Of a DNA stretch of 64,000 nucleotides, positions 5,723-51,825 are shown in pieces. Position numbers and translations under genes: made by a program. Under the pieces are notes generated by a model. It worked only from the letters and a program-made list of their open reading frames with translations. It had not been told where the DNA came from and made no database searches. Source of the DNA: Escherichia coli (GTDB lineage: Bacteria > Pseudomonadota > Gammaproteobacteria > Enterobacterales > Enterobacteriaceae); assembly GCF_024223415.1 (NCBI RefSeq), contig NZ_CP100500.1. One strand, written 5' to 3'. Position 1 is the first letter of the stretch; each line of letters opens with the position of its first letter.

Positions 5723-5899
5723 TTAAACATTTATAAGCGTTATAAATGGGTGGAAACTGTAAAGACTTCTACTCATTTATATTCTTTGTCGTCTCTGAAA
5801 AACCTCCATTTTGCCCATCCTGAACTAATCATTATCATTCTCTACAAATTCTGTGGCGTTAATTTTTCGCTGGAGTGAAAACTATTGCGGTAAAGTTTG

Positions 5900-6059
5900 G
5901 TAGATTTTAGTTTGTATAGAGTTATTTTAAATATTTACCTTTTTAATCAATGGGTTAAGTGCTCTTTAACATGATGGATGTGTTGTTTGTGTGATACTGT
6001 AAAGTTGGTAGATTGTGACTGGCTTAAAAAATCATTAATTAATAATAGGTTATGTTTAG
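5900..6059 (+). promoter_or_regulatory. CRISPR leader (AT-rich) for array at 6060-6759
   Basis: AT-rich sequence ending ...taggttatgtttaga immediately 5' of first repeat; resembles the E. coli I-E leader as I recall it; boundaries approximate. Confidence 0.7.
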
Positions 6060-6759
6060 AGAGTTCCCCGCGCTAGCGGGGATAAACCGGCTGGATACCG
6101 ATCAATTCAATATCGTTTTACGAGTTCCCCGCGCTAGCGGGGATAAACCGGAATACCGATTCATAACGGCGGAAATGTGGATGAGTTCCCCGCGCTAGCG
6201 GGGATAAACCGGTTAATGATGTCAGTGGCGGTTTTCGTATCGCGAGTTCCCCGCGCTAGCGGGGATAAACCGAGTGAGGCAATCAAATGACCCGCCCGCA
6301 ATTAGAGTTCCCCGCGCCAGCGGGGATAAACCGTAAATCCCTCGCGCATCGAGTCAAATGTCGGAGAGTTCCCCGCGCCAGCGGGGATAAACCGGTCGCT
6401 GGAACGGGGCGAATAAAGAGGGGCTCGAGTTCCCCGCGCCAGCGGGGATAAACCGACAGCTCTTTCCCGTCGTTATCCAGTTGGTAAGAGTTCCCCGCGC
6501 CAGCGGGGATAAACCATATGATTCACGAATTACAGGAAACCAGCCGCCGAGTTCCCCGCGTCAGCGGGGGTAAACCGCTATCGGGGTGATTCTGCCAATG
6601 CTCAGAGTGGTGTTCCCCGCGCCAGCGGGGATAAACCGAGCGTTTGCTCCGGGTGGAATAACCCTGGCGGGTGTTCCCCGCTCCAGCGGGGATAAACCGT
6701 TTGCTGGAACCCAAAACTCAGCGCACAGGTTGTGTTCCCCGCGCCAGCGGGGATAAACC
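6060..6759 (+). CRISPR. Type I-E CRISPR array, 12 repeats of 29 bp with 11 spacers of 32 bp (61-bp period)
   Basis: Repeats GAGTTCCCCGCGC[T/C]AGCGGGGATAAACCG at 6060, 6121, 6182, 6243, 6304, 6365, 6426, 6487, 6548, 6609, 6670, 6731; distal repeats degenerate (GTG..., last base A). Confidence 0.98.
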
Positions 6760-7214
6760 ACCATATAACCCGTTATCTCTTTCTCAAGTTTTTATATTAG
6801 CTGTACTTGTAATAAGCAACATATCCACGTAACACCTCATGTTCAAAATAGTTCCCCATGCCAGATAAGTTCACAATTATCGATACAAAAAATTAAATTT
6901 AATCAAAGTGTTATTTGTATAATTCTTAAGCCGTTAAGAAATTTTAATCTATTATTTTTTTAATATTAATTAATGCCTGTTAATTTTTTCTTTAGTATAA
7001 CAGTGTATTTTTTAAGCTTGTTATTCATTGATTAAGTAATAAATCTGGAAATTTGTCTTTGTTTTGAGGCTAATGAGTGGTTTTACATAACCGCCTCTAT
7101 ACGCTGTTGATGAATAGTTCTTATGAATAAAGATATCCAGTTCATACTTTAAGTGAAAATTGATAAAGTGCGATTCGTATTGTCTTTTATTCTAAAGACA
7201 TCGAGTGTAGTTAA

Positions 7215-7352
7215 TATTCCTTGTAAAAACAGGGATAAACCGAACTAGTTAAAGTTTTTATTATGTTCCCTGCATCAGCGGGGATAAACCGGACTTGTTA
7301 TCATTTTTTAAGTTGTCGAACTTATGTTCCCCGCGCCAGCGGGGATAACCAT
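7215..7352 (+). CRISPR. Degenerate CRISPR remnant (2-3 decayed repeats, one 32-bp spacer) preceded by AT-rich leader-like region
   Basis: Repeat-like atgttccctgcatcagcggggataaaccg at 7263-7291 and atgttccccgcgccagcggggataacc at 7324-7350; partial cagggataaaccg at 7231-7243. Confidence 0.75.
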
Positions 7353-7397
7353 TCAGGTATGTTCAGGCCGGGCAGTTTCCCGCCCGGTCTTCCTCAC

Positions 7398-8876
7398 TTA
7401 CGCATTCGACCAGCTCTGGATCGAATCCGCATTCCCCAATTCCCCATGCATCACTTCATACGATTTTTTCAGGATCACATCAGTATGTTTGGTTAGGTCT
7501 TTGAAAATGCCTTTATTCATCGCGTCGTAGCGTTTGGCATTGCTCTCAATCGGTATAAAGATATCTTTCACGCGAACCATTTTATCGACAGCCGTTGCGT
7601 AATCCGGGTATAGCCCCAGACCTACCGCTGTATTAATCGCTGCCCCCAGGCTTGCACAACCGTTAATGGCGTTACGGCGTGCCGGAAGGTTGAACACGTC
7701 GGCAAAAATCTGCATAAACAGATCGCTGTTCGAACCGCCGCCAGTAATGATCACATGCTTTGCAAAGTGATTCATTTCATTACACATATTGTCGTAATTG
7801 TTCTTCAGCGTCAGCGCCACGCTTTCCAGTATAGAACGATATATCCATGCGTAATCCATGCTGGAATCAAAGCCGATCATAATCCCACGTTTGTAGGGTT
7901 CCCACGGGTTGGTCAGCCAGTCCAGCACCGTCATCAGACCATTACAGCCAGGCGGCACACAAGAAGCTTTTTTGTTGAGCAAATCTTCCGGTGAAAGATC
8001 CTGTGCTTTGGCATCCTGAATTAACGACTCGCCTAGCATGTCGCGCAGCCAGCTCACCGTCCACATGCCTTTACGGATACCGTAACCTTCATACAGCAAT
8101 GTTTGCGGAATAGAAGACATAATCGGCCAGTACGCCACCGGATCTTTCGGCAGTGCTTTGCCGTTCATCATCAATGCGATGTAAGTGCCAAGAGAAATTA
8201 CCGCCGTTTCATCATCCAGTAATCCGGCCCCCAGAGCTTCTACCGGTTTATCACTGGTGGTACAAACAACCGGCAGTCCTGCCGGGAAATGTGTCGCCAG
8301 TGCGGCTTGTGGTGTGATATGTCCGAGGACGGTGCCAGGCATTTGCACATCAAACAGCATATGACGGGGGATATTAAACTTATCCATTACCGCAGCATCT
8401 TCACTCCATGCCCAGCTCTTATAATCCACCGGCCACTGACCAAAATAGTTGGAGATATTGTCTTTAAACTCGCCGGTTAAGCGATGCGTCAGATAACCCG
8501 AAAAAGAGGTGACATAGGCCACGTCAGGATTAGTGTGTTCGTAGGGACGCGTTACGCGTGCATCCTGCCAGCTAATCAATGGCGCAGCTGGCGTGCCATC
8601 GGCTTTCAATAACGCACGGCAGCAACGGATGGATCCCAGACCAATACCGACAATATCTTCTTTATTCCCGGCAAACTGACTCATCAAATCGTGACCGGCA
8701 AAACATAATGATGCCCATAAATCGTCGTCAGGATGTTCTGCGGTATCGGCATCTGGCGTGTGCATCGGCTGCAATAAGCCTTTACCTTCGCAAACCACAT
8801 TACCTTCCAGATCGTACATCACCACTTTTGTGCTCTGACTTCCGCCATCAATCCCTATGATGTATTTTTTCGACAT
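7398..8876 (-). CDS. ygcE: FGGY-family carbohydrate kinase
   Basis: 492-aa ORF; FGGY kinase N-terminus (YIIGIDGGSQSTKVVMYD) and position next to CRISPR array as in K-12. Confidence 0.9.
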   Translation of the reverse strand: MSKKYIIGIDGGSQSTKVVMYDLEGNVVCEGKGLLQPMHTPDADTAEHPDDDLWASLCFAGHDLMSQFAGNKEDIVGIGLGSIRCCRALLKADGTPAAPLISWQDARVTRPYEHTNPDVAYVTSFSGYLTHRLTGEFKDNISNYFGQWPVDYKSWAWSEDAAVMDKFNIPRHMLFDVQMPGTVLGHITPQAALATHFPAGLPVVCTTSDKPVEALGAGLLDDETAVISLGTYIALMMNGKALPKDPVAYWPIMSSIPQTLLYEGYGIRKGMWTVSWLRDMLGESLIQDAKAQDLSPEDLLNKKASCVPPGCNGLMTVLDWLTNPWEPYKRGIMIGFDSSMDYAWIYRSILESVALTLKNNYDNMCNEMNHFAKHVIITGGGSNSDLFMQIFADVFNLPARRNAINGCASLGAAINTAVGLGLYPDYATAVDKMVRVKDIFIPIESNAKRYDAMNKGIFKDLTKHTDVILKKSYEVMHGELGNADSIQSWSNA

Positions 8877-22457: not shown

Positions 22458-23192
22458 ATGTCCAAACTCGATCTAAACGCCCTGAACGAACTGCCGAAGG
22501 TAGATCGCATTCTGGCGCTGGCGGAAACTAACGCCCAACTGGAAAAACTGGACGCTGAAGGCCGCGTAGCCTGGGCGCTGGATAATCTGCCCGGTGAATA
22601 TGTGCTTTCTTCCAGCTTCGGCATTCAGGCGGCGGTGAGCCTGCATCTGGTGAATCAGATTCGCCCGGATATTCCAGTGATCCTCACCGATACGGGTTAT
22701 TTGTTCCCGGAAACCTACCGCTTTATTGACGAGTTAACGGACAAACTCAAGCTCAACCTGAAAGTGTACCGTGCTACCGAAAGCGCAGCCTGGCAGGAAG
22801 CACGCTACGGAAAACTGTGGGAACAGGGCGTTGAAGGCATTGAAAAGTACAATGACATCAACAAAGTCGAACCGATGAACCGGGCGCTGAAAGAACTTAA
22901 CGCGCAAACGTGGTTTGCTGGTCTGCGCCGTGAACAATCCGGCAGCCGCGCCAATTTACCGGTGCTGGCAATTCAGCGTGGCGTATTTAAAGTGCTGCCG
23001 ATTATCGACTGGGATAACCGAACGATATATCAGTATCTACAAAAGCATGGCCTGAAATATCATCCATTATGGGACGAAGGATATTTATCGGTGGGCGATA
23101 CCCATACAACCCGTAAATGGGAACCCGGCATGGCGGAAGAAGAAACGCGTTTCTTTGGCTTAAAAAGGGAATGTGGGTTACACGAAGGGTAA
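22458..23192 (+). CDS. cysH: Phosphoadenosine phosphosulfate (PAPS) reductase
   Basis: ORF-track call 22305-23192 is a 5' over-extension through the REP; preferred ATG 22458 ([14 protein letters not shown]...) giving 244 aa. Confidence 0.95.
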
Positions 23193-23456
23193 ATATTGCC
23201 GGATAAATTAAACGCCTCTGTCAGAAATGATGGGTGCGTTTTTATTTTGCGAGCAGCATTCCTGATTTTAAACGTGAACGCCGCTGGAAGAATTATCAGG
23301 TATAGAATGGCGTCGGGTGCTTGAGGCTGTCTGGCGTTAAGCATTCGCGAGGTTCCAGATGGACAAAAGCCCCAGGCGATATTTCTATCAACCTGAGGCC
23401 AGCGTTCGAACCTAAGCAATTCGGATGTTAGTCTCTTCTTTGCAGGGAGGCAAGAC

Positions 23457-23609
23457 ATGCTAACAAAATATGCCCTTGTGGCAATCATAGTACTGTGTTG
23501 TACAGTACTGGGATTCACGCTCATGGTAGGCGACTCGTTGTGTGAGTTGAGTATCAGAGAACGTGGTATGGAGTTTAAGGCTGTTCTCGCTTACGAATCG
23601 AAGAAGTAG
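23457..23609 (+). CDS. hokX: Hok-family type I toxin peptide (50 aa, single TM helix, conserved Cys and C-terminal AYESKK-like tail)
   Basis: Own translation: [50 protein letters not shown]; AGGGAGG RBS 8 nt upstream; below the ORF-track size cutoff; symbol by position between cysH and cas3 (recall of K-12 hokX/sokX). Confidence 0.75.
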
Positions 23610-32459: not shown

Positions 32460-33342
32460 GTGTTCCCCGCGCCAGCGGGGATAAACCGGTCAAATCGGTT
32501 ACCTTAACCTGTTGAATGTGGTGTTCCCCGCGCCAGCGGGGATAAACCGAACGGCTACGGCACCGAGGTGACAAACCAGATGTGTTCCCCGCGCCAGCGG
32601 GGATAAACCGAACTCCAGGATATTGCAAACCGCATAGTGGATGTGTTCCCCGCGCCAGCGGGGATAAACCGCCGTTGCGCTGGCATCGGGTGTACCTGTT
32701 GTGGTGTTCCCCGCGCCAGCGGGGATAAACCGCCGTTGCGCTGGCATCGGGTGTACCTGTTGTGGTGTTCCCCGCGCCAGCGGGGATAAACCGGGCTTAC
32801 ACGCCACCATGGCATCAAGAACGATGTGTTCCCCGCGCCAGCGGGGATAAACCGATTACGACTTCCGCACGCACCCACCGTTTGTAGTGTTCCCCGCGCC
32901 AGCGGGGATAAACCGTTGGGCTAGGAGGAAGAGCATCATTAACATGGGTGTTCCCCGCGCCAGCGGGGATAAACCTGAGGCGGCTAAACCGTCGCGCACA
33001 CGAGCGACGTGTTCCCCGCGCCAGCGGGGATAAACCGCGTACTGCTTACTCCGTCATCGATGTATGAGTGTGTTCCCCGCGCCAGCGGGGATAAACCGTA
33101 CGTGTCGCCGTTACAGATTTCAGTCTGTTAGTGTTCCCCGCGCCAGCGGGGATAAACCGGGCGTCCAGTGATGCTTTCTGGTGCTCGAATAGTGTTCCCC
33201 GCGCCAGCGGGGATAAACCGCACGATTTTATGTGCCGCGTTGAGGCGTGGGCGTGTTCCCCGCGCCAGCGGGGATAAACCGGGCGCACTGGATGCGATGA
33301 TGGATATCACTTAGAATTCCCCGCCCCTGCGGTAGAACACCC
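32460..33342 (+). CRISPR. Type I-E CRISPR array, 14 repeats of 29 bp plus degenerate terminal repeat; 14 spacers of 32 bp
   Basis: GTGTTCCCCGCGCCAGCGGGGATAAACCG every 61 bp from 32460 to 33253; degenerate repeat gaattccccgcccctgcggtagaacac at 33314-33342. Confidence 0.98.
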
Positions 33343-43429: not shown

Positions 43430-44422
43430 ATGAGTCAGAATACGCTGAAAGTTCATGATTTAAATGAAGATGCGGAATTTGATGAGAACGGAGTTGAGGT
43501 TTTTGACGAAAAGGCCTTAGTAGAAGAGGAACCCAGTGATAACGATTTGGCCGAAGAGGAACTGTTATCGCAGGGAGCCACACAGCGTGTGTTGGACGCG
43601 ACTCAGCTTTACCTTGGTGAGATTGGTTATTCACCACTGTTAACGGCCGAAGAAGAAGTTTATTTTGCGCGTCGCGCACTGCGTGGAGATGTCGCCTCTC
43701 GCCGCCGGATGATCGAGAGTAACTTGCGTCTGGTGGTAAAAATTGCCCGCCGTTATGGCAATCGTGGTCTGGCGTTGCTGGACCTTATCGAAGAGGGCAA
43801 CCTGGGGCTGATCCGCGCGGTAGAGAAGTTTGACCCGGAACGTGGTTTCCGCTTCTCAACATACGCAACCTGGTGGATTCGCCAGACGATTGAACGGGCG
43901 ATTATGAACCAAACCCGTACTATTCGTTTGCCGATTCACATCGTAAAGGAGCTGAACGTTTACCTGCGAACCGCACGTGAGTTGTCCCATAAGCTGGACC
44001 ATGAACCAAGTGCGGAAGAGATCGCAGAGCAACTGGATAAGCCAGTTGATGACGTCAGCCGTATGCTTCGTCTTAACGAGCGCATTACCTCGGTAGACAC
44101 CCCGCTGGGTGGTGATTCCGAAAAAGCGTTGCTGGACATCCTGGCCGATGAAAAAGAGAACGGTCCGGAAGATACCACGCAAGATGACGATATGAAGCAG
44201 AGCATCGTCAAATGGCTGTTCGAGCTGAACGCCAAACAGCGTGAAGTACTGGCACGTCGATTCGGTTTGCTGGGGTACGAAGCGGCAACACTGGAAGATG
44301 TAGGTCGTGAAATTGGCCTCACCCGTGAACGTGTTCGCCAGATTCAGGTTGAAGGCCTGCGCCGTTTGCGCGAAATCCTGCAAACGCAGGGGCTGAATAT
44401 CGAAGCGCTGTTCCGCGAATAA
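43430..44422 (+). CDS. rpoS: RNA polymerase sigma factor sigma-S
   Basis: ORF-track start 43394; preferred ATG 43430 ([17 protein letters not shown]...) giving 330 aa; full length, no internal stop. Confidence 0.98.
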
Positions 44423-44438
44423 GTAAGCATCTGTCAGA

Positions 44439-44475
44439 AAGGCCAGTCTCAAGCGAGGCTGGCCTTTTTCTTTTG
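44439..44475 (+). terminator. rpoS intrinsic terminator (GC stem ggccag...ctggcc followed by tttttctttt)
   Basis: Read directly 17 nt after rpoS stop. Confidence 0.7.
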
Positions 44476-44541: not shown

Positions 44542-44949
44542 CTATGTGTTCATCATCTTGCGCACCAGCTGCACAAACAGCTCCTGCTCTTCTGCACTCA
44601 AACGCCCCAAAAATTCCTCATCCACGCTGTCACCAATCGGTATCGCCGCAGCAAGTATCTTTTCTCCTTCGGCAGTCAGCCAGACAAAGCGACGCCGCTT
44701 GTCAGCGGCATCATGTTCACGTCTGACTAAGCCACGATTCTCCATTCTTGCCAACATTTCTGCCAACGTTGCTTTGGTGCTGACTGCTGCTTCTATCAGT
44801 GCCACCTGTTCGATACCAGGCTTATCAGCAATGGCGCGCATCACCGCATACTGTGGTTTGGTCAGGTCAGGTAACTCGTGCTGCCAGCGAGCCGTGTGCT
44901 GCTGAAAAAGCTGTCGTAACTGATGGAACGCTTTATTTCGTAACGCCAT
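44542..44949 (-). CDS. MarR/SlyA-family transcriptional regulator
   Basis: ORF 44542-44982; preferred ATG 44949 (GGAG RBS), ~135 aa; divergent from decarboxylase operon. Confidence 0.82.
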   Translation of the reverse strand: MALRNKAFHQLRQLFQQHTARWQHELPDLTKPQYAVMRAIADKPGIEQVALIEAAVSTKATLAEMLARMENRGLVRREHDAADKRRRFVWLTAEGEKILAAAIPIGDSVDEEFLGRLSAEEQELFVQLVRKMMNT

Positions 44950-45063
44950 GTAAACTCCGGGCAAACTATCTGCCGCTATCATAGCGGTTTTTCAGTGACG
45001 AAGGGGATGTTGTTACTTTTCAGTGCTTGCCGCAATGAGAACAGAGGCGTATTTTAATAATAA

Positions 45064-45079
45064 TGTTCGTATACGAACA
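45064..45079. promoter_or_regulatory. Perfect 16-bp palindrome tgttcgtatacgaaca in MarR-decarboxylase divergent intergenic region (candidate operator)
   Basis: Self-complementary sequence read directly; 17 nt upstream of the UbiX-like start. Confidence 0.55.
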
Positions 45080-45095
45080 ATTAAGAGAGTAAGCA

Positions 45096-45689
45096 ATGAA
45101 ACTGATCGTCGGGATGACAGGGGCTACCGGTGCGCCTCTTGGTGTGGCATTACTGCAAGCGCTGCGGGAGATGCCGAATGTCGAGACTCATCTGGTGATG
45201 TCGAAGTGGGCGAAAACCACCATTGAACTGGAAACGCCTTACAGCGCCCGCGATGTTGCTGCCCTCGCTGACTTCAGCCATAACCCGGCGGATCAGGCGG
45301 CGACCATCTCCTCAGGTTCCTTTCGTACCGACGGCATGATCGTTATTCCGTGCAGTATGAAAACGCTCGCCGGTATCCGCGCTGGTTACGCTGATGGCCT
45401 GGTAGGGCGCGCGGCGGACGTCGTGCTCAAAGAAGGCCGCAAACTGGTGCTGGTGCCGCGTGAAATGCCGCTTAGCACCATCCATCTCGAAAATATGCTC
45501 GCACTTTCACGCATGGGCGTGGCGATGGTGCCGCCGATGCCTGCCTTTTATAACCATCCCGAAACGGTAGATGACATTGTCCACCACGTGGTAGCCCGCG
45601 TGCTGGATCAATTTGGCCTTGAACATCCCTACGCCAGGCGCTGGCAAGGATTGCCGCAGGCCCGGAATTTTTCTCAGGAGAATGAATAA
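45096..45689 (+). CDS. UbiX-like flavin prenyltransferase (phenolic acid decarboxylase subunit B)
   Basis: 197-aa ORF; MKLIVGMTGATGAPLGVALLQAL flavoprotein N-terminus typical of UbiX/Pad1. Confidence 0.88.
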   Translation: MKLIVGMTGATGAPLGVALLQALREMPNVETHLVMSKWAKTTIELETPYSARDVAALADFSHNPADQAATISSGSFRTDGMIVIPCSMKTLAGIRAGYADGLVGRAADVVLKEGRKLVLVPREMPLSTIHLENMLALSRMGVAMVPPMPAFYNHPETVDDIVHHVVARVLDQFGLEHPYARRWQGLPQARNFSQENE

Positions 45690-47116
45690 TGGCATTTGAT
45701 GATTTACGCAGCTTTTTACAGGCGCTTGATGACCACGGCCAGTTACTGAAAATCAGCGAAGAGGTGAACGCGGAACCGGATCTGGCTGCCGCTGCCAACG
45801 CCACCGGGCGTATCGGCGATGGTGCACCGGCGCTGTGGTTTGATAATATTCGCGGTTTTACCGATGCCCGCGTGGCGATGAATACCATCGGTTCCTGGCA
45901 GAACCACGCGATTTCCTTGGGCCTGCCGCCAAACACCCCGGTTAAAAAACAGATTGATGAGTTTATCCGCCGCTGGGATAACTTCCCGATCGCCCCGGAG
46001 CGCCGCGCCAATCCAGCCTGGGCGCAGAACACCGTCGATGGTGACGAGATTAATCTGTTCGATATCCTGCCGCTGTTTCGTTTAAACGACGGTGATGGCG
46101 GTTTCTATCTCGACAAAGCGTGCGTGGTTTCCCGCGATCCGCTCGACCCGGATAACTTCGGCAAGCAGAACGTCGGCATCTACCGCATGGAAGTGAAGGG
46201 CAAGCGTAAGCTCGGCCTGCAACCGGTGCCGATGCACGATATCGCCCTGCATCTGCATAAAGCAGAAGAGCGCGGTGAAGATCTACCGATTGCGATCACG
46301 CTCGGTAACGATCCGATCATCACGCTGATGGGCGCAACGCCACTGAAATACGATCAATCTGAGTACGAAATGGCAGGCGCGCTGCGTGAAAGCTCGTACC
46401 CGATCGCCACCGCCCCGCTGACCGGTTTTGATGTGCCGTGGGGTTCAGAAGTGATCCTCGAAGGGGTCATCGAAAGCCGTAAACGCGAAATCGAAGGGCC
46501 GTTCGGTGAGTTTACCGGACACTACTCCGGCGGGCGTAACATGACCGTGGTGCGCATCGATAAAGTCTCTTACCGCACCAGGCCGATTTTCGAATCGCTG
46601 TACCTCGGCATGCCGTGGACCGAAATCGACTACCTGATGGGGCCAGCCACCTGTGTGCCGCTGTATCAGCAACTGAAAGCCGAGTTCCCGGAAGTGCAGG
46701 CGGTAAACGCCATGTACACCCACGGCCTGCTGGCGATTATCTCCACCAAAAAACGCTACGGCGGCTTTGCCCGCGCGGTGGGCCTGCGTGCGATGACCAC
46801 GCCGCACGGTCTGGGCTACGTAAAGATGGTGATTATGGTCGATGAAGACGTTGACCCGTTCAACCTGCCGCAGGTGATGTGGGCGCTCTCCTCGAAAGTA
46901 AATCCGGCAGGGGATTTGGTGCAGTTGCCGAATATGTCCGTGCTGGAACTCGACCCTGGCTCAAGCCCGGCGGGGATCACCGACAAGCTGATTATCGACG
47001 CCACCACGCCTGTCGCCCCGGACAACTGTGGTCACTACAGCCAGCCGGTGGTGGATTTGCCGGAAACCAAAGCCTGGGCTGAAAAACTGACCGCTATGCT
47101 GGCTGCACGTAAATAA
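45689..47116 (+). CDS. UbiD-family (prenylated-FMN-dependent) aromatic acid decarboxylase, subunit C
   Basis: 475-aa ORF overlapping upstream stop; UbiD-family size and motifs. Confidence 0.85.
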   Translation: MAFDDLRSFLQALDDHGQLLKISEEVNAEPDLAAAANATGRIGDGAPALWFDNIRGFTDARVAMNTIGSWQNHAISLGLPPNTPVKKQIDEFIRRWDNFPIAPERRANPAWAQNTVDGDEINLFDILPLFRLNDGDGGFYLDKACVVSRDPLDPDNFGKQNVGIYRMEVKGKRKLGLQPVPMHDIALHLHKAEERGEDLPIAITLGNDPIITLMGATPLKYDQSEYEMAGALRESSYPIATAPLTGFDVPWGSEVILEGVIESRKREIEGPFGEFTGHYSGGRNMTVVRIDKVSYRTRPIFESLYLGMPWTEIDYLMGPATCVPLYQQLKAEFPEVQAVNAMYTHGLLAIISTKKRYGGFARAVGLRAMTTPHGLGYVKMVIMVDEDVDPFNLPQVMWALSSKVNPAGDLVQLPNMSVLELDPGSSPAGITDKLIIDATTPVAPDNCGHYSQPVVDLPETKAWAEKLTAMLAARK

Positions 47117-47126
47117 GGAGAACAAG

Positions 47127-47363
47127 ATGATTTGTCCACGTTGTGCCGATGAACAGATTGAAGTGATGGCGAAATCGCCGGTGAAAGATGTCTGGACGGT
47201 ATATCAGTGCCAGCATTGCCTTTATACCTGGCGCGATACCGAACCGCTGCGCCGTACCAGCCGCGAACATTACCCTGAAGCGTTCCGCATGACGCAGAAA
47301 GATATTGATGACGCGCCAATGGTGCCGAGCATCCCGCCGCTGCTGGCGGCAGATAAGCGCTAA
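47127..47363 (+). CDS. Small zinc-ribbon decarboxylase subunit D (BsdD/VdcD-like)
   Basis: 78-aa ORF with CPRC...CQHC four-Cys motif, immediately after the UbiD-like gene. Confidence 0.8.
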   Translation: MICPRCADEQIEVMAKSPVKDVWTVYQCQHCLYTWRDTEPLRRTSREHYPEAFRMTQKDIDDAPMVPSIPPLLAADKR

Positions 47364-47371
47364 TAAAAAGT

Positions 47372-47400
47372 GCCGGGTAGTGGCTTTGCTTTACCCGGCC
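47372..47400. terminator. Hairpin between convergent decarboxylase operon and pphB (gccgggta...tacccggc)
   Basis: 8-bp stem with 12-nt loop, flanked by A/T-rich sequence on both sides. Confidence 0.55.
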
Positions 47401-47403
47401 TCA

Positions 47404-48060
47404 TTACTTTATTTTATAAAATGACAGCCGCCCGCTTTTCGGCGATCCGGTATCAATATAAATCTGGTTAGCGAACGTCTGAATGTTATCAAACATCATA
47501 TGTCCAAATATAAAATAATCAGCGCCGTTTATTTGTTGTAACTCGCCATTAAGCGATTTCTGCACACGATCAACAGGCCAGAGTAATTCGCTCTCCGCTA
47601 TTTCTTTACCAAAGAGATATTCACTCCCCGGATAATCTGCATGTGCGATGACATATTTTATATTGTCGTTAGTGATTTCAATAATATGTGGAAGGTGATG
47701 GAATTTCAGCAACAGATCTGTAGCTTCTTTTTGCTCTGAATCATTTAAATCGAAAAACCAGTCACCACCGCTGGCAAGCCACATATTTCCATCGCCAGTT
47801 TCGAATGCATCAAGCGCCATCGCTTCGTGGTTGCCTTTAACGGAGATAAACCAGGGCTGGTTTAGCAGGCGCAGGACGTTAAGACTCTCCGGCCCACGAT
47901 CAATATTATCGCCGACAGAAATAAGTAAGTCGGTTTCGGGGAAAAAAGAGAGTTGATGTAAGCGGGATTGTAATAACTGATATTCACCATGAATATCACC
48001 AACGACCCATATATGGCGATAGTGATGGGCATTGATTTTTTGATAGCGTGTAGATGGCAT
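47404..48060 (-). CDS. pphB: Serine/threonine protein phosphatase 2
   Basis: 218-aa ORF; metallophosphatase motifs GDIHG, GDNIDRG, GNHE. Confidence 0.93.
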   Translation of the reverse strand: MPSTRYQKINAHHYRHIWVVGDIHGEYQLLQSRLHQLSFFPETDLLISVGDNIDRGPESLNVLRLLNQPWFISVKGNHEAMALDAFETGDGNMWLASGGDWFFDLNDSEQKEATDLLLKFHHLPHIIEITNDNIKYVIAHADYPGSEYLFGKEIAESELLWPVDRVQKSLNGELQQINGADYFIFGHMMFDNIQTFANQIYIDTGSPKSGRLSFYKIK

Positions 48061-48165: not shown

Positions 48166-50727
48166 TTACACCAGACTCTTCAGGCGATAAATCCATTCCA
48201 GCGCCTGACGCGGGGTGAGTGAATCTGGATCGAGGTTTTCCAGTGCCTCGACCGCAGGCGAGGTTTCTTCCGGTACGGACAGCAAAGACATTTGTGTACC
48301 ATCCACTTGCGTAGCGGCGGCGTTCGGTGAAATGCTTTCCAGCTCACGCAGTTTCTGCCGCGCGCGTTTGATCACCTCTTTTGGCACGCCGGCCAGAGCT
48401 GCAACCGCCAGGCCGTAGCTTTTGCTCGCCGCGCCATCCTGCACGCTATGCATAAAGGCAATGGTGTCGCCGTGCTCCAGTGCATCGAGATGCACGTTGG
48501 CGACGCCTTCCATTTTCTCCGGTAACTGGGTCAGCTCGAAATAGTGGGTAGCAAACAGCGTCAATGCCTTAATCTTATTCGCCAGATTTTCCGCGCACGC
48601 CCATGCCAGTGACAGACCATCGTAAGTGGACGTTCCACGCCCGATCTCATCCATTAACACCAGACTGTATTCGGTGGCGTTATGTAAAATATTGGCGGTT
48701 TCAGTCATCTCCACCATAAAGGTTGAGCGCCCGGAAGCCAGGTCATCTGCCGCGCCTACGCGGGTAAAGATGCGATCGATAGGTCCAATCTCGACTTTTT
48801 GTGCCGGTACATAGCTGCCGATGTAGGCCATCAGCGCAATCAGTGCGGTCTGGCGCATATAGGTACTTTTACCGCCCATGTTCGGGCCGGTAATAATCAA
48901 CATCCGGCGCTGCGGTGACAGATTCAGCGGGTTGGCGATAAATGGCTCGTTCAGCACCTGTTCAACCACCGGATGGCGGCCTTCGGTAATGCGAATGCCC
49001 GGTTTATCAATAAAGGTCGGGCAGGTGTAGTTCAGGGTATAGGCCCGTTCCGCCAGGTTCACCAGCACGTCGAGTTCCGCCAGCGCGCTCGCGCTCTGTT
49101 GCAACGCTTCCAGATGCGGCAACAGCAGGTCGAACAACTCTTCATAAAGCTGTTTTTCCAGTGCCAGTGCTTTGCCTTTTGAAGTGAGGACTTTATCTTC
49201 GTACTCTTTTAGCTCTGGAATGATGTAGCGCTCGGCGTTTTTCAGCGTCTGGCGACGCATATAGTTGATAGGTGCCAGATGGCTTTGCCCACGGCTGATT
49301 TGAATGTAGTAGCCGTGCACCGCATTAAAGCCAACTTTTAGCGTGTCCAGGCCGGTACGTTCACGCTCGCGGACTTCCAGACGCTCCAGATAATCGGTCG
49401 CGCCGTCAGCCAGCGCGCGCCACTCATCCAGCTCTTCGTTATAGCCTGATGCGATAACACCACCGTCGCGTACCAGCACCGGCGGTGTGTCGATGATTGC
49501 TCGCTCCAGCAGATCGCGCAGCTCGGCAAACTCGCCCATCTTCTCACGTAGCGCCTGTACTGGTGCACTATCAACAGTTTCTAACTGCGCACGCAGCTCC
49601 GGCAGTTGCTGGAAAGCGTGACGCATACGGGCCAGATCGCGTGGGCGAGCGGTACGCAACGCCAGACGCGCCAGAATACGTTCCAGGTCGCCGACCTGAC
49701 GTAGTACCGGCTGCAACTCGGCGGTGAAATCCTGCAATGCGCCAATAGTTTGCTGGCGCTCAAGCAACACGCGGGTATCGCGCACTGGCATATGCAGCCA
49801 GCGTTTCAGCATACGGCTGCCCATCGGCGTGACGGTGCAGTCGAGCACAGAAGCCAGCGTATTTTCCGCACCACCCGCCAGATTCTGGGTGATTTCCAGA
49901 TTACGACGCGTCGCGGCATCCATAATGATGCTGTCCTGCTCACGTTCCATGGTGATGGAACGAATATGCGGCAGAGTCGTACGTTGGGTATCTTTCGCAT
50001 ACTGCAACAGACAACCGGCAGCACAAAGTCCGCGCGGCGCGTTCTCGACGCCAAAACCGACCAGATCGCGAGTGCCAAATTGCAGATTCAACTGCTGGCG
50101 CGCGGTGTCGATTTCAAACTCCCACAGCGGGCGACGGCGCAGGCCGCGACGGCCTTCAATTAACGACATTTCAGCAAAATCTTCTGCATACAGCAGTTCC
50201 GCAGGATTAGTGCGTTGCAGTTCTGCCGCCATCGTTTCCCGGTCAGCCGGTTCGCTCAGGCGAAAACGACCGGAACTGATATCCAGCGTCGCGTAGCCGA
50301 AACCTTTGCTGTCCTGCCAGATAGCCGCCAGCAGGTTGTCCTGACGCTCCTGCAACAGGGCTTCATCGCTGATGGTGCCTGGCGTAACGATACGCACAAC
50401 TTTGCGCTCAACCGGACCTTTGCTGGTCGCCGGATCGCCAATTTGTTCGCAGATGGCAACGGACTCGCCCTGATTCACCAGTTTGGCGAGGTAGTTTTCC
50501 ACCGCATGATAGGGGATCCCCGCCATCGGGATCGGCTCTCCCGCTGAAGCACCGCGTTTGGTCAGTGAAATATCCAGCAGTTGCGATGCGCGTTTTGCGT
50601 CGTCATAAAACAGTTCATAAAAATCACCCATCCGGTAAAACAGCAGGATCTCGGGATGCTGGGCTTTCAGCTTGAGATACTGCTGCATCATGGGCGTATG
50701 GGCGTCGAAATTTTCTATTGCACTCAT
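48166..50727 (-). CDS. mutS: DNA mismatch repair protein MutS
   Basis: 853-aa ORF; Walker [10 protein letters not shown]; full length. Confidence 0.98.
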
Positions 50728-51396: not shown

Positions 51397-51825
51397 TTAC
51401 GCTTTGGTGGCAATCAGGATGGCTGATGCTTTGATCAATGCAATAACGCGTGAGCCAGTGGTGAGTTTCATTTCATCCTGACTTTCATTTGTTACCACTG
51501 CCACAATTTCAAAACCCGCATCCGTTTTGATATGGACAGTGGCGTTCACTGCGCCTTCGGTGATTGTCGACACGCTGCCAGCAAACTGGTTGCGAGCAGA
51601 GAATTTCAGTCCACAGTCTTCCGTTGCCAGCGTTACCCACGGGGCTTTAATCAGGGCAATCGCTTCTTTCCCTTTCGCCAGACCCAGAGCCTGCTGGCTG
51701 CTGTGAGTCACAATTGCCACCAGCTTTGCACCACCTGCCAGCGTCAGTTCTAATTCGTCATTCACCGCGCCCATTGCTACTGCGCTAACTGTTCCGGTTA
51801 ATTGATTTCTTGCTGAAACTGCCAT
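51397..51825 (-). CDS. Tandem TOBE-domain (Mop/ModG-like) molybdate/tungstate-binding protein
   Basis: ORF 51397-51864; preferred ATG 51825 (AAAGGAGG RBS), ~142 aa; two ~70-aa repeats each starting SARNQ.(T/A)G.VS. Confidence 0.8.
   Translation of the reverse strand: MAVSARNQLTGTVSAVAMGAVNDELELTLAGGAKLVAIVTHSSQQALGLAKGKEAIALIKAPWVTLATEDCGLKFSARNQFAGSVSTITEGAVNATVHIKTDAGFEIVAVVTNESQDEMKLTTGSRVIALIKASAILIATKA

Follow-up and report, generated by a model that had tools for sequence, protein, structure and literature searches.

Background

The closest described system is the HosA/HAD operon of Escherichia coli UMN026, E2348/69 and O157:H7 (Roy & Ranjan 2016; Ferrandiz 2005; PDB 8AGA, 8PQ4 and others), in which the regulator HosA controls the non-oxidative hydroxyarylic acid decarboxylase (HAD) genes vdcBCD (synonyms ecdBCD, kpdBCD and pad1-yclC-yclD). 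According to Roy & Ranjan 2016, as cited, HosA represses the HAD operon and also its own gene, acting through a site that lies on the downstream side of the transcription start, 4-hydroxybenzoate (4-HBA) frees it from the sequence GTTCGTATACGAAC, and E. coli decarboxylates 4-HBA or vanillate. For the UMN026 protein, EMSA demonstrated 4-HBA-dependent release from DNA, BLI was also employed, and ITC yielded a KD for 4-HBA of 4.7 uM. In EPEC, HosA is also reported to activate fliC and motility, given which it is not solely a local repressor. More distantly related are PcaV and other phenolic-acid-sensing MarR repressors (PDB 4FHT), the next-best PDB matches after HosA (E about 1e-16), which share with it the MarR fold, a hydroxybenzoate ligand and release from a palindromic operator, but differ in the operator itself and in the pathway regulated.

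On the enzymatic side, the VdcCD complexes of Sedimentibacter hydroxybenzoicus (Sh) and Bacillus subtilis (Bs) pair a UbiD-like C subunit with a four-cysteine zinc-ribbon D subunit, and a UbiX-like B protein is encoded next to them (PDB 7AE4, 7AE5, 7AE7; PMC8379154). VdcC requires VdcD, and both complexes act on 4-HBA and vanillate (PMC8379154).

Gene content of the locus

In the window, meaning the whole 64,000-nucleotide stretch of E. coli DNA analyzed here, positions 44542-47363 hold a MarR-type gene and, divergent from it, three co-oriented genes, all four intact. The features of the interval and its borders are as follows:

rpoS, 43430..44422, plus strand: ORF identical over 331 codons to RpoS of EDL933 and labelled rpoS in the matching records; bounds the variable interval on the left
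rpoS intrinsic terminator, 44436..44469, plus strand: terminator-like hairpin and T-run; homology to K-12 stops just past it, which marks the left junction
hosA, 44542..44949, minus strand: MarR-family repressor sensing 4-HBA (Pfam MarR, 8AGA match; function per Roy & Ranjan 2016, as cited)
vdcB (ecdB/pad1), 45096..45689, plus strand: UbiX-type flavin prenyltransferase making prFMN (NCBIfam VdcB, Pfam Flavoprotein, 1SBZ)
vdcC (ecdC/yclC), 45689..47116, plus strand: catalytic subunit of a UbiD-family, prFMN-dependent hydroxyarylic acid decarboxylase (NCBIfam, Pfam, 7AE4_A)
vdcD (ecdD/yclD), 47127..47363, plus strand: 78-aa zinc-ribbon small subunit, allosteric activator of VdcC (NCBIfam VdcD, 7AE4_a)
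Hairpin GCCGGGTA...TACCCGGC, 47372..47399, no strand assigned: found on inspection of the sequence that separates the convergent genes vdcD and pphB; right junction, O157-type arrangement
pphB, 47404..48060, minus strand: protein-serine/threonine phosphatase (NCBIfam PRK09968, 474 bits), annotated pphB; right border
mutS, 48166-50727, minus strand: beyond pphB

This is almost certainly the HosA-controlled HAD locus of E. coli, hosA plus vdcBCD. It shares with the UMN026/E2348/69/O157:H7 operon the locus itself, the operator core, the spacer, the gene order and the rpoS-side position, and differs from it only by alleles, each of the four proteins showing 0-2 amino-acid differences from its EDL933 counterpart. 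RefSeq annotation of the matching records gives the same four products. The initial annotation, which had recognized a divergent MarR/SlyA-type regulator and a UbiX-like/UbiD-like/zinc-ribbon trio, was right both in what it observed and in how it read it, yet all of this had already been described in print.

The longest ORF of the regulator spans 44542-44982 on the minus strand, and the second ATG, which is the start used by RefSeq and by the crystallised protein, gives 44542-44949 and 135 aa. It carries a winged helix-turn-helix MarR domain (Pfam MarR, 45.4 bits against a cut-off of 24.6, E 7e-12; MarR_2, 41.8 bits against 27) and matches PDB 8AGA, 'Transcriptional regulator HosA', over its full length with 133/135 identical residues; HosA itself has been named "homologue of SlyA". 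Its genomic position is that of hosA in EDL933 and E2348/69, and I99V and V126M distinguish it from the E2348/69 protein. By analogy with UMN026 HosA, DNA binding relieved by 4-HBA would carry over to this allele.

VdcB scores above the cut-offs of NCBIfam VdcB (311 bits, cut-off 290) and ubiX_pad (246.8 bits, cut-off 108.9), and aligns over residues 1-197, that is, all 197, with PDB 1SBZ, the crystallised O157:H7 Pad1/EcdB (E 3e-130). Its amino-acid sequence is identical to that of the EDL933 protein, and family membership suggests that it makes prFMN. The 1SBZ structure was deposited as a 'probable aromatic acid decarboxylase' before the chemistry of UbiX was known. The stop codon of vdcB overlaps the start of vdcC (ATGA). 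VdcC exceeds the NCBIfam VdcC cut-off (785.6 bits against 650) and those of Pfam UbiD_N, UbiD and UbiD_C, aligns end to end with ShVdcC (PDB 7AE4_A, E 1.6e-159) and retains the catalytic Glu-Arg-Glu triad, with R166 in NVGIYR and E269 and E274 in EGPFGEF, the latter aligning with ShVdcC E278. VdcD (NCBIfam VdcD, 121.2 bits, cut-off 30; ShdD, PDB 7AE4_a, E 3.5e-11) has two CXXC knuckles formed by Cys3, Cys6, Cys28 and Cys31, numbered as the zinc ligands of crystallised ShVdcD; it is 78 aa long as against 68 aa in the homologue and contains a 6-residue insertion. Both the catalytic triad and the zinc ligands are thus common to this locus and the Sedimentibacter and Bacillus VdcCD, which are homologues from other phyla. 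Family and structure matches, and the conserved catalytic and zinc residues, support the assignment of the locus.

The substrates first proposed, 4-HBA and vanillate, are those of the homologous VdcCD, and 4-HBA is the effector of HosA; by analogy, this E. coli enzyme would accept similar substrates. Decarboxylation of 4-HBA or vanillate by E. coli was reportedly also described by Lupa in 2005.

The hairpin at 47372-47399 probably serves as a bidirectional terminator for vdcD and pphB; its loop is 12 nt and it was hence not flagged by the terminator scan. An Rfam search of the interval recovered no RNA family.

Operator and likely promoters

Three regulatory features were placed in and around the 146-bp divergent intergenic region:

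Likely vdcB promoter, 45027..45055, plus strand: -35 TTGCCG at 45027-45032, 17-nt spacer, -10 TATTTT at 45050-45055; predicted start near 45062
HosA operator, 45064..45079, no strand assigned: 14-bp core GTTCGTATACGAAC at 45065-45078, extended by T45064 and A45079 to a 16-bp perfect palindrome in this lineage
Conserved block CTATCATAGCGG, 44975..44986, minus strand: contains TATGAT, the likely hosA -10

The palindrome TGTTCGTATACGAACA at 45064-45079, put forward in the initial annotation as a candidate MarR operator, has arms of 8+8 nt without spacer and 100% complementarity. Its position was confirmed exactly, and its core is the HosA binding site used experimentally in PMC6261655, where the EMSA/BLI oligos carry GTTCGTATACGAAC with the same E. 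coli flanks, CAGAGGCGTATTTTAATAATAAC ... AATTAAGAGAATAAAC. The supplement text of that paper prints the site as GTTTCGTATACGAAC, with one T more than every genome sequence; the main text speaks of 14 bp and a further oligo of that table carries GTTCGTATACGAAC, and the extra T probably reflects a misprint or an error in reading the PDF. Six E. coli lineages share the core without change and have either T or C at position 45064; in UMN026-type strains the base before the core is C, whereas T at this position here lengthens the palindrome from 14 to 16 bp.

Perfect 16-bp palindromes occur twice in the window (the other at 23140-23155), against an average of 1.1 in mononucleotide shuffles, and the significance of the palindrome by itself was accordingly rejected. 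By rough arithmetic, about 0.002 would be expected in the 146-bp divergent intergenic region. It is this position, together with conservation across genera and the published binding experiments, that gives the palindrome its weight. The half-sites GTTCG/CGAAC are invariant in 74/80 Enterobacteriaceae species loci, while the flanks diverge, and in most of these they lie 15-19 nt before the vdcB ATG. A search of the window for a second operator with at most 2 mismatches outside the central 4 nt found none.

Alternatively, the symmetry could belong to RNA instead of a protein-binding operator, the sequence forming a hairpin in the 5' leader of vdcB or serving as a weak minus-strand terminator. 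Its RNA fold has a stem of 6 bp and a loop of 4 nt (-5.8 kcal/mol, z -2.4 vs shuffles), and the sequence is among the minus-strand candidates of the terminator scan, with TTATTATTAA after it. However, the hairpin is weak, the minus-strand tail contains only interrupted T runs, and direct binding of HosA to the site has been published. Moreover, across the 80 species variation falls in the flanks and in the four central bases, and the stem bases are invariant, never showing a compensatory change; the one change that recurs in the stem, ATTCG in Rahnella, disrupts the pair without compensation. Invariant, uncompensated stem bases and the pair-breaking change in Rahnella point to base-specific protein contacts rather than an RNA stem, so that the RNA reading is barely credible and the site is taken here as the HosA operator.

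For vdcB, the likely promoter is TTGCCG-17-TATTTT with a start near 45062; within E. coli neither hexamer varies, and other genera keep TTG in the -35 and TA in the -10. The operator would then likely lie just downstream of the transcription start. The predicted start agrees with the statement that the HosA site is downstream of the transcription start, as published and cited. A promoter returned by the consensus scan, ATGAGA-18-AATAAT (45035-45064), is not conserved across genera and was rejected.

In the hosA-proximal half of the spacer, the only blocks conserved over 19 genera are CTATCATAGCGG and CTCC at 44955-44958, the complement of the hosA Shine-Dalgarno (GGAG). TATGAT in the former is likely the hosA -10. 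This block overlaps a 15-bp palindrome, CCGCTATCATAGCGG (44973-44987), which was considered as a regulator site and set aside: only its centre, TAT[C/G]ATAGC, is conserved, and this is read as the hosA -10. A direct repeat, TTTTCAGTG, present twice (44989, 45017), aligns poorly outside Escherichia and was treated as chance. With a single operator situated some 100 bp away from the likely -10 of hosA, this promoter assignment leaves the reported autorepression unaccounted for.

In Klebsiella, Enterobacter, Kluyvera, Lelliottia, Leclercia and Pseudocitrobacter, the vdcB -35 is directly adjoined by a second, imperfect HosA-like box with consensus GATCGTGTACGAAC, which precedes the main operator by 56-57 bp on the upstream side. 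No such box exists in Escherichia, whose spacer is roughly 25 nt shorter, or in Citrobacter and Salmonella; only about 7/14 positions of the window stretch aligned with it match, in an alignment read by eye. Were the box functional, the ancestral locus might have used two HosA dimers and the E. coli system could be a simplified derivative, a tentative and rather doubtful proposal. In that case, repression in the ancestor would have been tighter or cooperative, possibly with true autoregulation of hosA, and the system characterised and used in biosensors would be the simplified form. The box may be the only part of the present results not yet in print.

Distribution and origin

The rpoS-mutS interval was called a known polymorphic hotspot in the initial annotation, and is documented as such in PMC4209514 and in Herbelin 2000, as cited in PMC5491219. 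Lineages of E. coli differ here by deletions, the window representing the O157:H7-type state, with the cluster retained and ygbN-ygbI missing; K-12 and SJ3 show other states. The window corresponds to 'pattern I' of PMC4209514 (cluster present, ygbN (o454) absent, vdcD adjoining pphB), as does EDL933, and it has the vdcD-pphB junction of the O157:H7 mutS-rpoS '2.9-kb' segment (Herbelin 2000), in which the ygb genes are likewise absent.

The comparison with O157:H7 suggested at the outset recovered the same arrangement in EDL933, with DNA 98.9% identical over 2981 nt. Relative to EDL933, the window encodes S236 and C447 in VdcC (P and R there), A75 and D76 in VdcD (E and G there) and A2 in HosA (T there). 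The non-O157 commensal SCU-316 is 100% identical over the interval and carries all substitutions seen relative to EDL933.

In K-12, ygbN-ygbM-ygbL-otnK-ltnD-ygbI lie between rpoS and pphB, and the query matches only at nt 1-46, the rpoS terminator. That the cluster is absent from K-12 and stands where K-12 carries ygb genes was thus borne out, but the two gene sets are not alternatives in the species at large. The cluster occurs in 2379/5426 complete E. coli genomes (44%), of which the O157-type junction, with vdcD directly beside pphB, accounts for 807/5426, and about 1570 complete genomes (2379 with the cluster minus 807 with the junction of the window) have both.

Absence of the cluster from K-12 and most B2 strains, the reported regulation of motility via fliC in EPEC and the title of a bioRxiv preprint, which calls HosA 'horizontally acquired', would fit a pathogen-specific island obtained by horizontal transfer, with HosA acting mainly as a SlyA-like virulence/motility regulator. 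The surveyed loci speak otherwise. In most of 80 Enterobacteriaceae species loci, covering >15 genera, hosA-vdc(B)CD lies beside rpoS, with mutS or pphB within 6 kb on the other side, and because of this shared neighbourhood K-12 most likely lost the cluster. The K-12 and window junctions, too, look like simple deletions from a form with both the cluster and the ygb genes. The cluster is found in the 44% of complete genomes noted above, the closest genome comes from a healthy student's rectal swab, and in EPEC no effect on adherence or LEE regulation was found. A pathogen-specific acquisition therefore appears very improbable, and the comparison supports vertical inheritance with repeated loss.

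Proposed mechanism and significance

This analysis established which genes are present and that they are intact, where the operator lies and how it is conserved, and how the cluster is distributed; HosA binding, release by 4-HBA, repression and the activity of VdcCD in homologues come from the literature. Combining both, HosA would bind as a MarR-family dimer to the 14-bp inverted repeat immediately downstream of the vdcB promoter and block transcription of vdcBCD. Binding of 4-HBA to HosA would take the repressor off the DNA and allow expression of the operon. VdcB would then prenylate reduced FMN to give prFMN, which VdcC, activated by tight binding of VdcD, would use for the reversible conversion of 4-HBA to phenol and of vanillate to guaiacol. 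No evidence contradicting this HosA/HAD explanation was encountered.

The value of the locus as a discovery is small, as genes, regulator, ligand, operator and strain polymorphism are all published, RefSeq annotation is already correct, and crystal structures are available for two of the four proteins and for close homologues of the remaining two. Added here are the 80-locus neighbourhood survey, the conservation of the half-sites, and the conserved -35/-10 elements that place the operator downstream of the likely start. In practical terms, HosA and its operator are in use for 4-HBA biosensors and the rpoS-mutS pattern serves as a typing marker. For the biology of the family, the locus would let many E. 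coli and most Enterobacteriaceae form phenol and guaiacol from 4-HBA and vanillate, compounds that come from plant phenolics and the hydrolysis of parabens.

Organization of the hosA-vdcBCD locus

The initial annotation had placed a MarR-type gene and a divergent three-gene cluster between rpoS and pphB, a layout that was borne out by the ORF list and the sequence.

Features of the rpoS-mutS interval (window positions)
end at 44422, + strand, rpoS (ORF list)
44436-44469, rpoS terminator hairpin, directly after rpoS
44542-44982, - strand, MarR-type gene (hosA), longest ORF (ORF list)
44542-44949, - strand, hosA from the second ATG, as in RefSeq and the crystallised protein, 135 aa
44950-45095, hosA-vdcB spacer, 146 bp
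45096-45689, + strand, vdcB (ORF list)
45689-47116, + strand, vdcC, ATGA stop/start overlap with vdcB
47127-47363, + strand, vdcD (ORF list)
47372-47399, hairpin separating vdcD from convergent pphB
47404-48060, - strand, pphB, convergent with vdcD
48166-50727, - strand, mutS, beyond pphB

The UbiX, UbiD and small-subunit assignments were upheld by profile searches, in which all three products exceeded the NCBIfam cut-offs for subunits B, C and D of the non-oxidative hydroxyarylic acid decarboxylase (HAD; VdcB, 311 bits versus 290; VdcC, 786 versus 650; VdcD, 121 versus 30), with Pfam in agreement (Flavoprotein in B; UbiD_N, UbiD and UbiD_C in C). VdcB is identical to its counterpart in the O157:H7 strain EDL933 and aligns over all 197 residues with crystallised E. 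coli O157:H7 Pad1 (PDB 1SBZ, E 3e-130). VdcC keeps R166, E269 and E274 and aligns end to end with Sedimentibacter VdcC (ShVdcC; PDB 7AE4, E 1.6e-159), E274 falling on the catalytic E278 discussed in PMC8379154, while Cys3, Cys6, Cys28 and Cys31 of VdcD are also the four zinc ligands of the crystallised zinc-ribbon ShVdcD. In the homologous enzymes, VdcC is inactive without VdcD, and VdcC-VdcD decarboxylates 4-hydroxybenzoate (4-HBA) and vanillate with prFMN from a UbiX enzyme (PMC8379154). By its sequence, the MarR-type regulator is HosA (133 of 135 residues identical to PDB 8AGA, 'Transcriptional regulator HosA').

The HosA operator

The palindrome TGTTCGTATACGAACA lies exactly where first reported (45064-45079); its two 8-nt arms pair perfectly and adjoin without a spacer. 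At the scale of the window, a perfect 16-bp palindrome is no rarity (two are present, against 1.1 in shuffled sequence), so the weight of this one derives from location and conservation and not from its mere existence. Its proposed role as a MarR operator agrees with published work, in which HosA from E. coli UMN026 was used with 'a 14-bp TFBS', bound 4-HBA with a KD of 4.7 uM and was dissociated from its DNA site by this ligand in EMSA (PMC6261655). The oligonucleotide table of that study gives the natural spacer sequence as CAGAGGCGTATTTTAATAATAAC-site-AATTAAGAGAATAAAC, and one oligonucleotide contains GTTCGTATACGAAC; since these flanks match the aligned E. coli spacer, the published site corresponds to 45065-45078. 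The supplement prints the site in bold with an extra T (GTTTCG...), which we read as a typographical or PDF-reading error because the main text gives a length of 14 bp and the additional T occurs in no genome. Among six aligned E. coli lineages, base 45064 is T in the window, EDL933 and TUM1887 and C in 675SK2, SCU-105 and FUJ80154; hence the functional core is 14 bp long, and its extension to a perfect 16-bp palindrome is confined to some lineages. As summarised by two bioRxiv papers, Roy & Ranjan 2016 reported that HosA represses the HAD operon and its own gene, that 4-HBA relieves repression, and that the palindromic site, located downstream of the transcription start, acts as a roadblock.

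Conservation of the operator and putative promoters

A scan for HosA, taking one genome per species, yielded 80 loci, whose neighbouring genes were mapped by tblastn. Of these, 74 retain both half-sites, GTTCG and CGAAC, unchanged and vary only at the four central bases (TATA, TACA, TGTA, TATG, CATA). In most loci the vdcB ATG follows the operator at a distance of 15-19 nt; the sequence on either side of the operator diverges freely. As RNA it could form a weak hairpin (-5.8 kcal/mol), yet the sole stem change that recurs, ATTCG in Rahnella, has no compensatory change in the opposite arm; together with the invariant half-sites and free flanks, this argues for base-specific recognition by a protein rather than an RNA stem.

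Cross-genus alignment also points to a vdcB promoter with -35 TTGCCG (45027-45032; TTG conserved) and, 17 nt after it, -10 TATTTT (45050-45055; TA..T conserved), both hexamers being invariant within E. coli. Transcription would then start at about 45062, immediately ahead of the operator, which matches the account cited from Roy & Ranjan 2016. A promoter proposed from a consensus scan was rejected, as it was not conserved. The putative hosA -10 is TATGAT (minus strand, 44978-44983); with this assignment the single operator would lie ~100 bp upstream of the hosA start, and the reported autorepression would not be explained by simple occlusion.

Among E. coli, divergence in the spacer (44950-45095) far exceeds that in the flanking genes: megablast finds the spacer in only 1261 of the 2379 genomes with the cluster, at identities as low as 87%, yet operator, -35 and -10 are invariant. 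In many genera other than Escherichia an additional, imperfect HosA-like box (typically GATCGTGTACGAAC) abuts the vdcB -35 directly, 56-57 bp upstream of the main operator (species loci L009, L013, L020-L025, L030, L032, L033, L040-L061, L065, L067, L068 and L071). It is absent from 44950-45095 in the window and from Escherichia, where the spacer is ~25 nt shorter, and was not found in the Citrobacter, Salmonella and Kosakonia loci compared.

Polymorphism of the rpoS-mutS interval

Of 5426 complete E. coli genomes, 2379 contain the 2981-bp interval at ≥80% coverage; the closest genome, SCU-316, a commensal from a healthy student, is 100% identical over it. As the initial annotation had stated, K-12 differs here: in its strains the match is limited to the opening 46 nt, which hold the rpoS terminator, and ygbN-ygbM-ygbL-otnK-ltnD-ygbI occupies the stretch between rpoS and pphB. 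The vdcD-pphB junction of the window occurs in 807 of the 5426 genomes, and the remaining ~1570 carriers have cluster and ygb genes together, an arrangement that strain SJ3 illustrates through its vdcD-ygbN junction. In the typing scheme of PMC4209514 these states are patterns I, II and IV (pattern III being B2-specific), and PMC5491219 cites Herbelin 2000 for a '2.9 kb' hosA-pad1-yclC segment, in keeping with the hotspot originally proposed.

From the junction sequences, K-12 and the window are both simple deletion derivatives of the form carrying cluster and ygb genes. In most species loci the cluster adjoins rpoS on one flank and has mutS or pphB no more than 6 kb away on the opposite flank, an arrangement seen in Escherichia, Citrobacter, Klebsiella, Enterobacter, Kluyvera, Kosakonia, Leclercia, Lelliottia, Atlantibacter, Phytobacter and, in inverted orientation, Salmonella arizonae/diarizonae. 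The title of one preprint labels HosA 'horizontally acquired', which does not fit a position conserved across so many genera; the cluster is thus most likely ancestral there and was lost from K-12.

Six species loci (L055, L064, L070, L074, L080, L083; Pluralibacter, two Superficieibacter, Cedecea and two Rahnella) have hosA followed by vdcC-vdcD with no vdcB between; in these, prFMN presumably comes from the housekeeping UbiX. FUJ80154 (L088) has an intact hosA and operator, but its vdcB is annotated as a frameshifted pseudogene; in some lineages, gene decay instead of deletion may be removing the operon. SJ3 (L003) carries at 5797-8255 an IS91-family transposase insertion associated with the loss of the 3' end of surE, pcm, nlpD, rpoS, hosA, vdcB and most of vdcC; the strain is rpoS-null and retains just a vdcC remnant and vdcD. 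Beyond mutS, a TOBE-domain (molybdopterin-binding-like) gene between fhlA and ygbA (51397-51825, - strand), absent from the K-12 and EDL933 loci compared, corresponds to the known c3292 polymorphism (PMC4209514).

Other loci in the window

The second perfect 16-bp palindrome, AAGAAACGCGTTTCTT (23140-23155), lies near an Rfam sok antitoxin RNA match (23315-23472, + strand, 110 bits); in the near-identical SCU-316 the equivalent position, flanked by cysH and cas3, holds a Hok/Gef toxin gene. An unannotated gap of ~1.6 kb between queE and ygcE (~5723-7397), with periodic repeats in its ORF translations, holds a CRISPR array that we take to be the known ygcE-ygcF array of E. coli. A second array, whose approximate position (~32460-33280) is carried over from SCU-316, adjoins iap and cas2 and is accompanied by a complete type I-E cas operon, as in that strain.

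Proposed regulation of the cluster

The initial observation is confirmed and its interpretation supported, for a locus, regulator and operator that were already known; the second HosA-like box is possibly the only unpublished detail. The cross-species operator footprint is new in the present analysis and confirmatory. Decarboxylase activity in E. coli is reported in work cited by others, and was reportedly described by Lupa in 2005. In the proposed mechanism, a HosA dimer on 45065-45078, where binding is published, would block transcription from the adjacent promoter, whose position relative to the operator is deduced here and stated in the literature as cited. Binding of 4-HBA, published for the UMN026 allele, would release HosA from the DNA, whereupon VdcB would make prFMN, as expected from its family, and VdcC-VdcD would decarboxylate 4-HBA and vanillate, as published for homologues.
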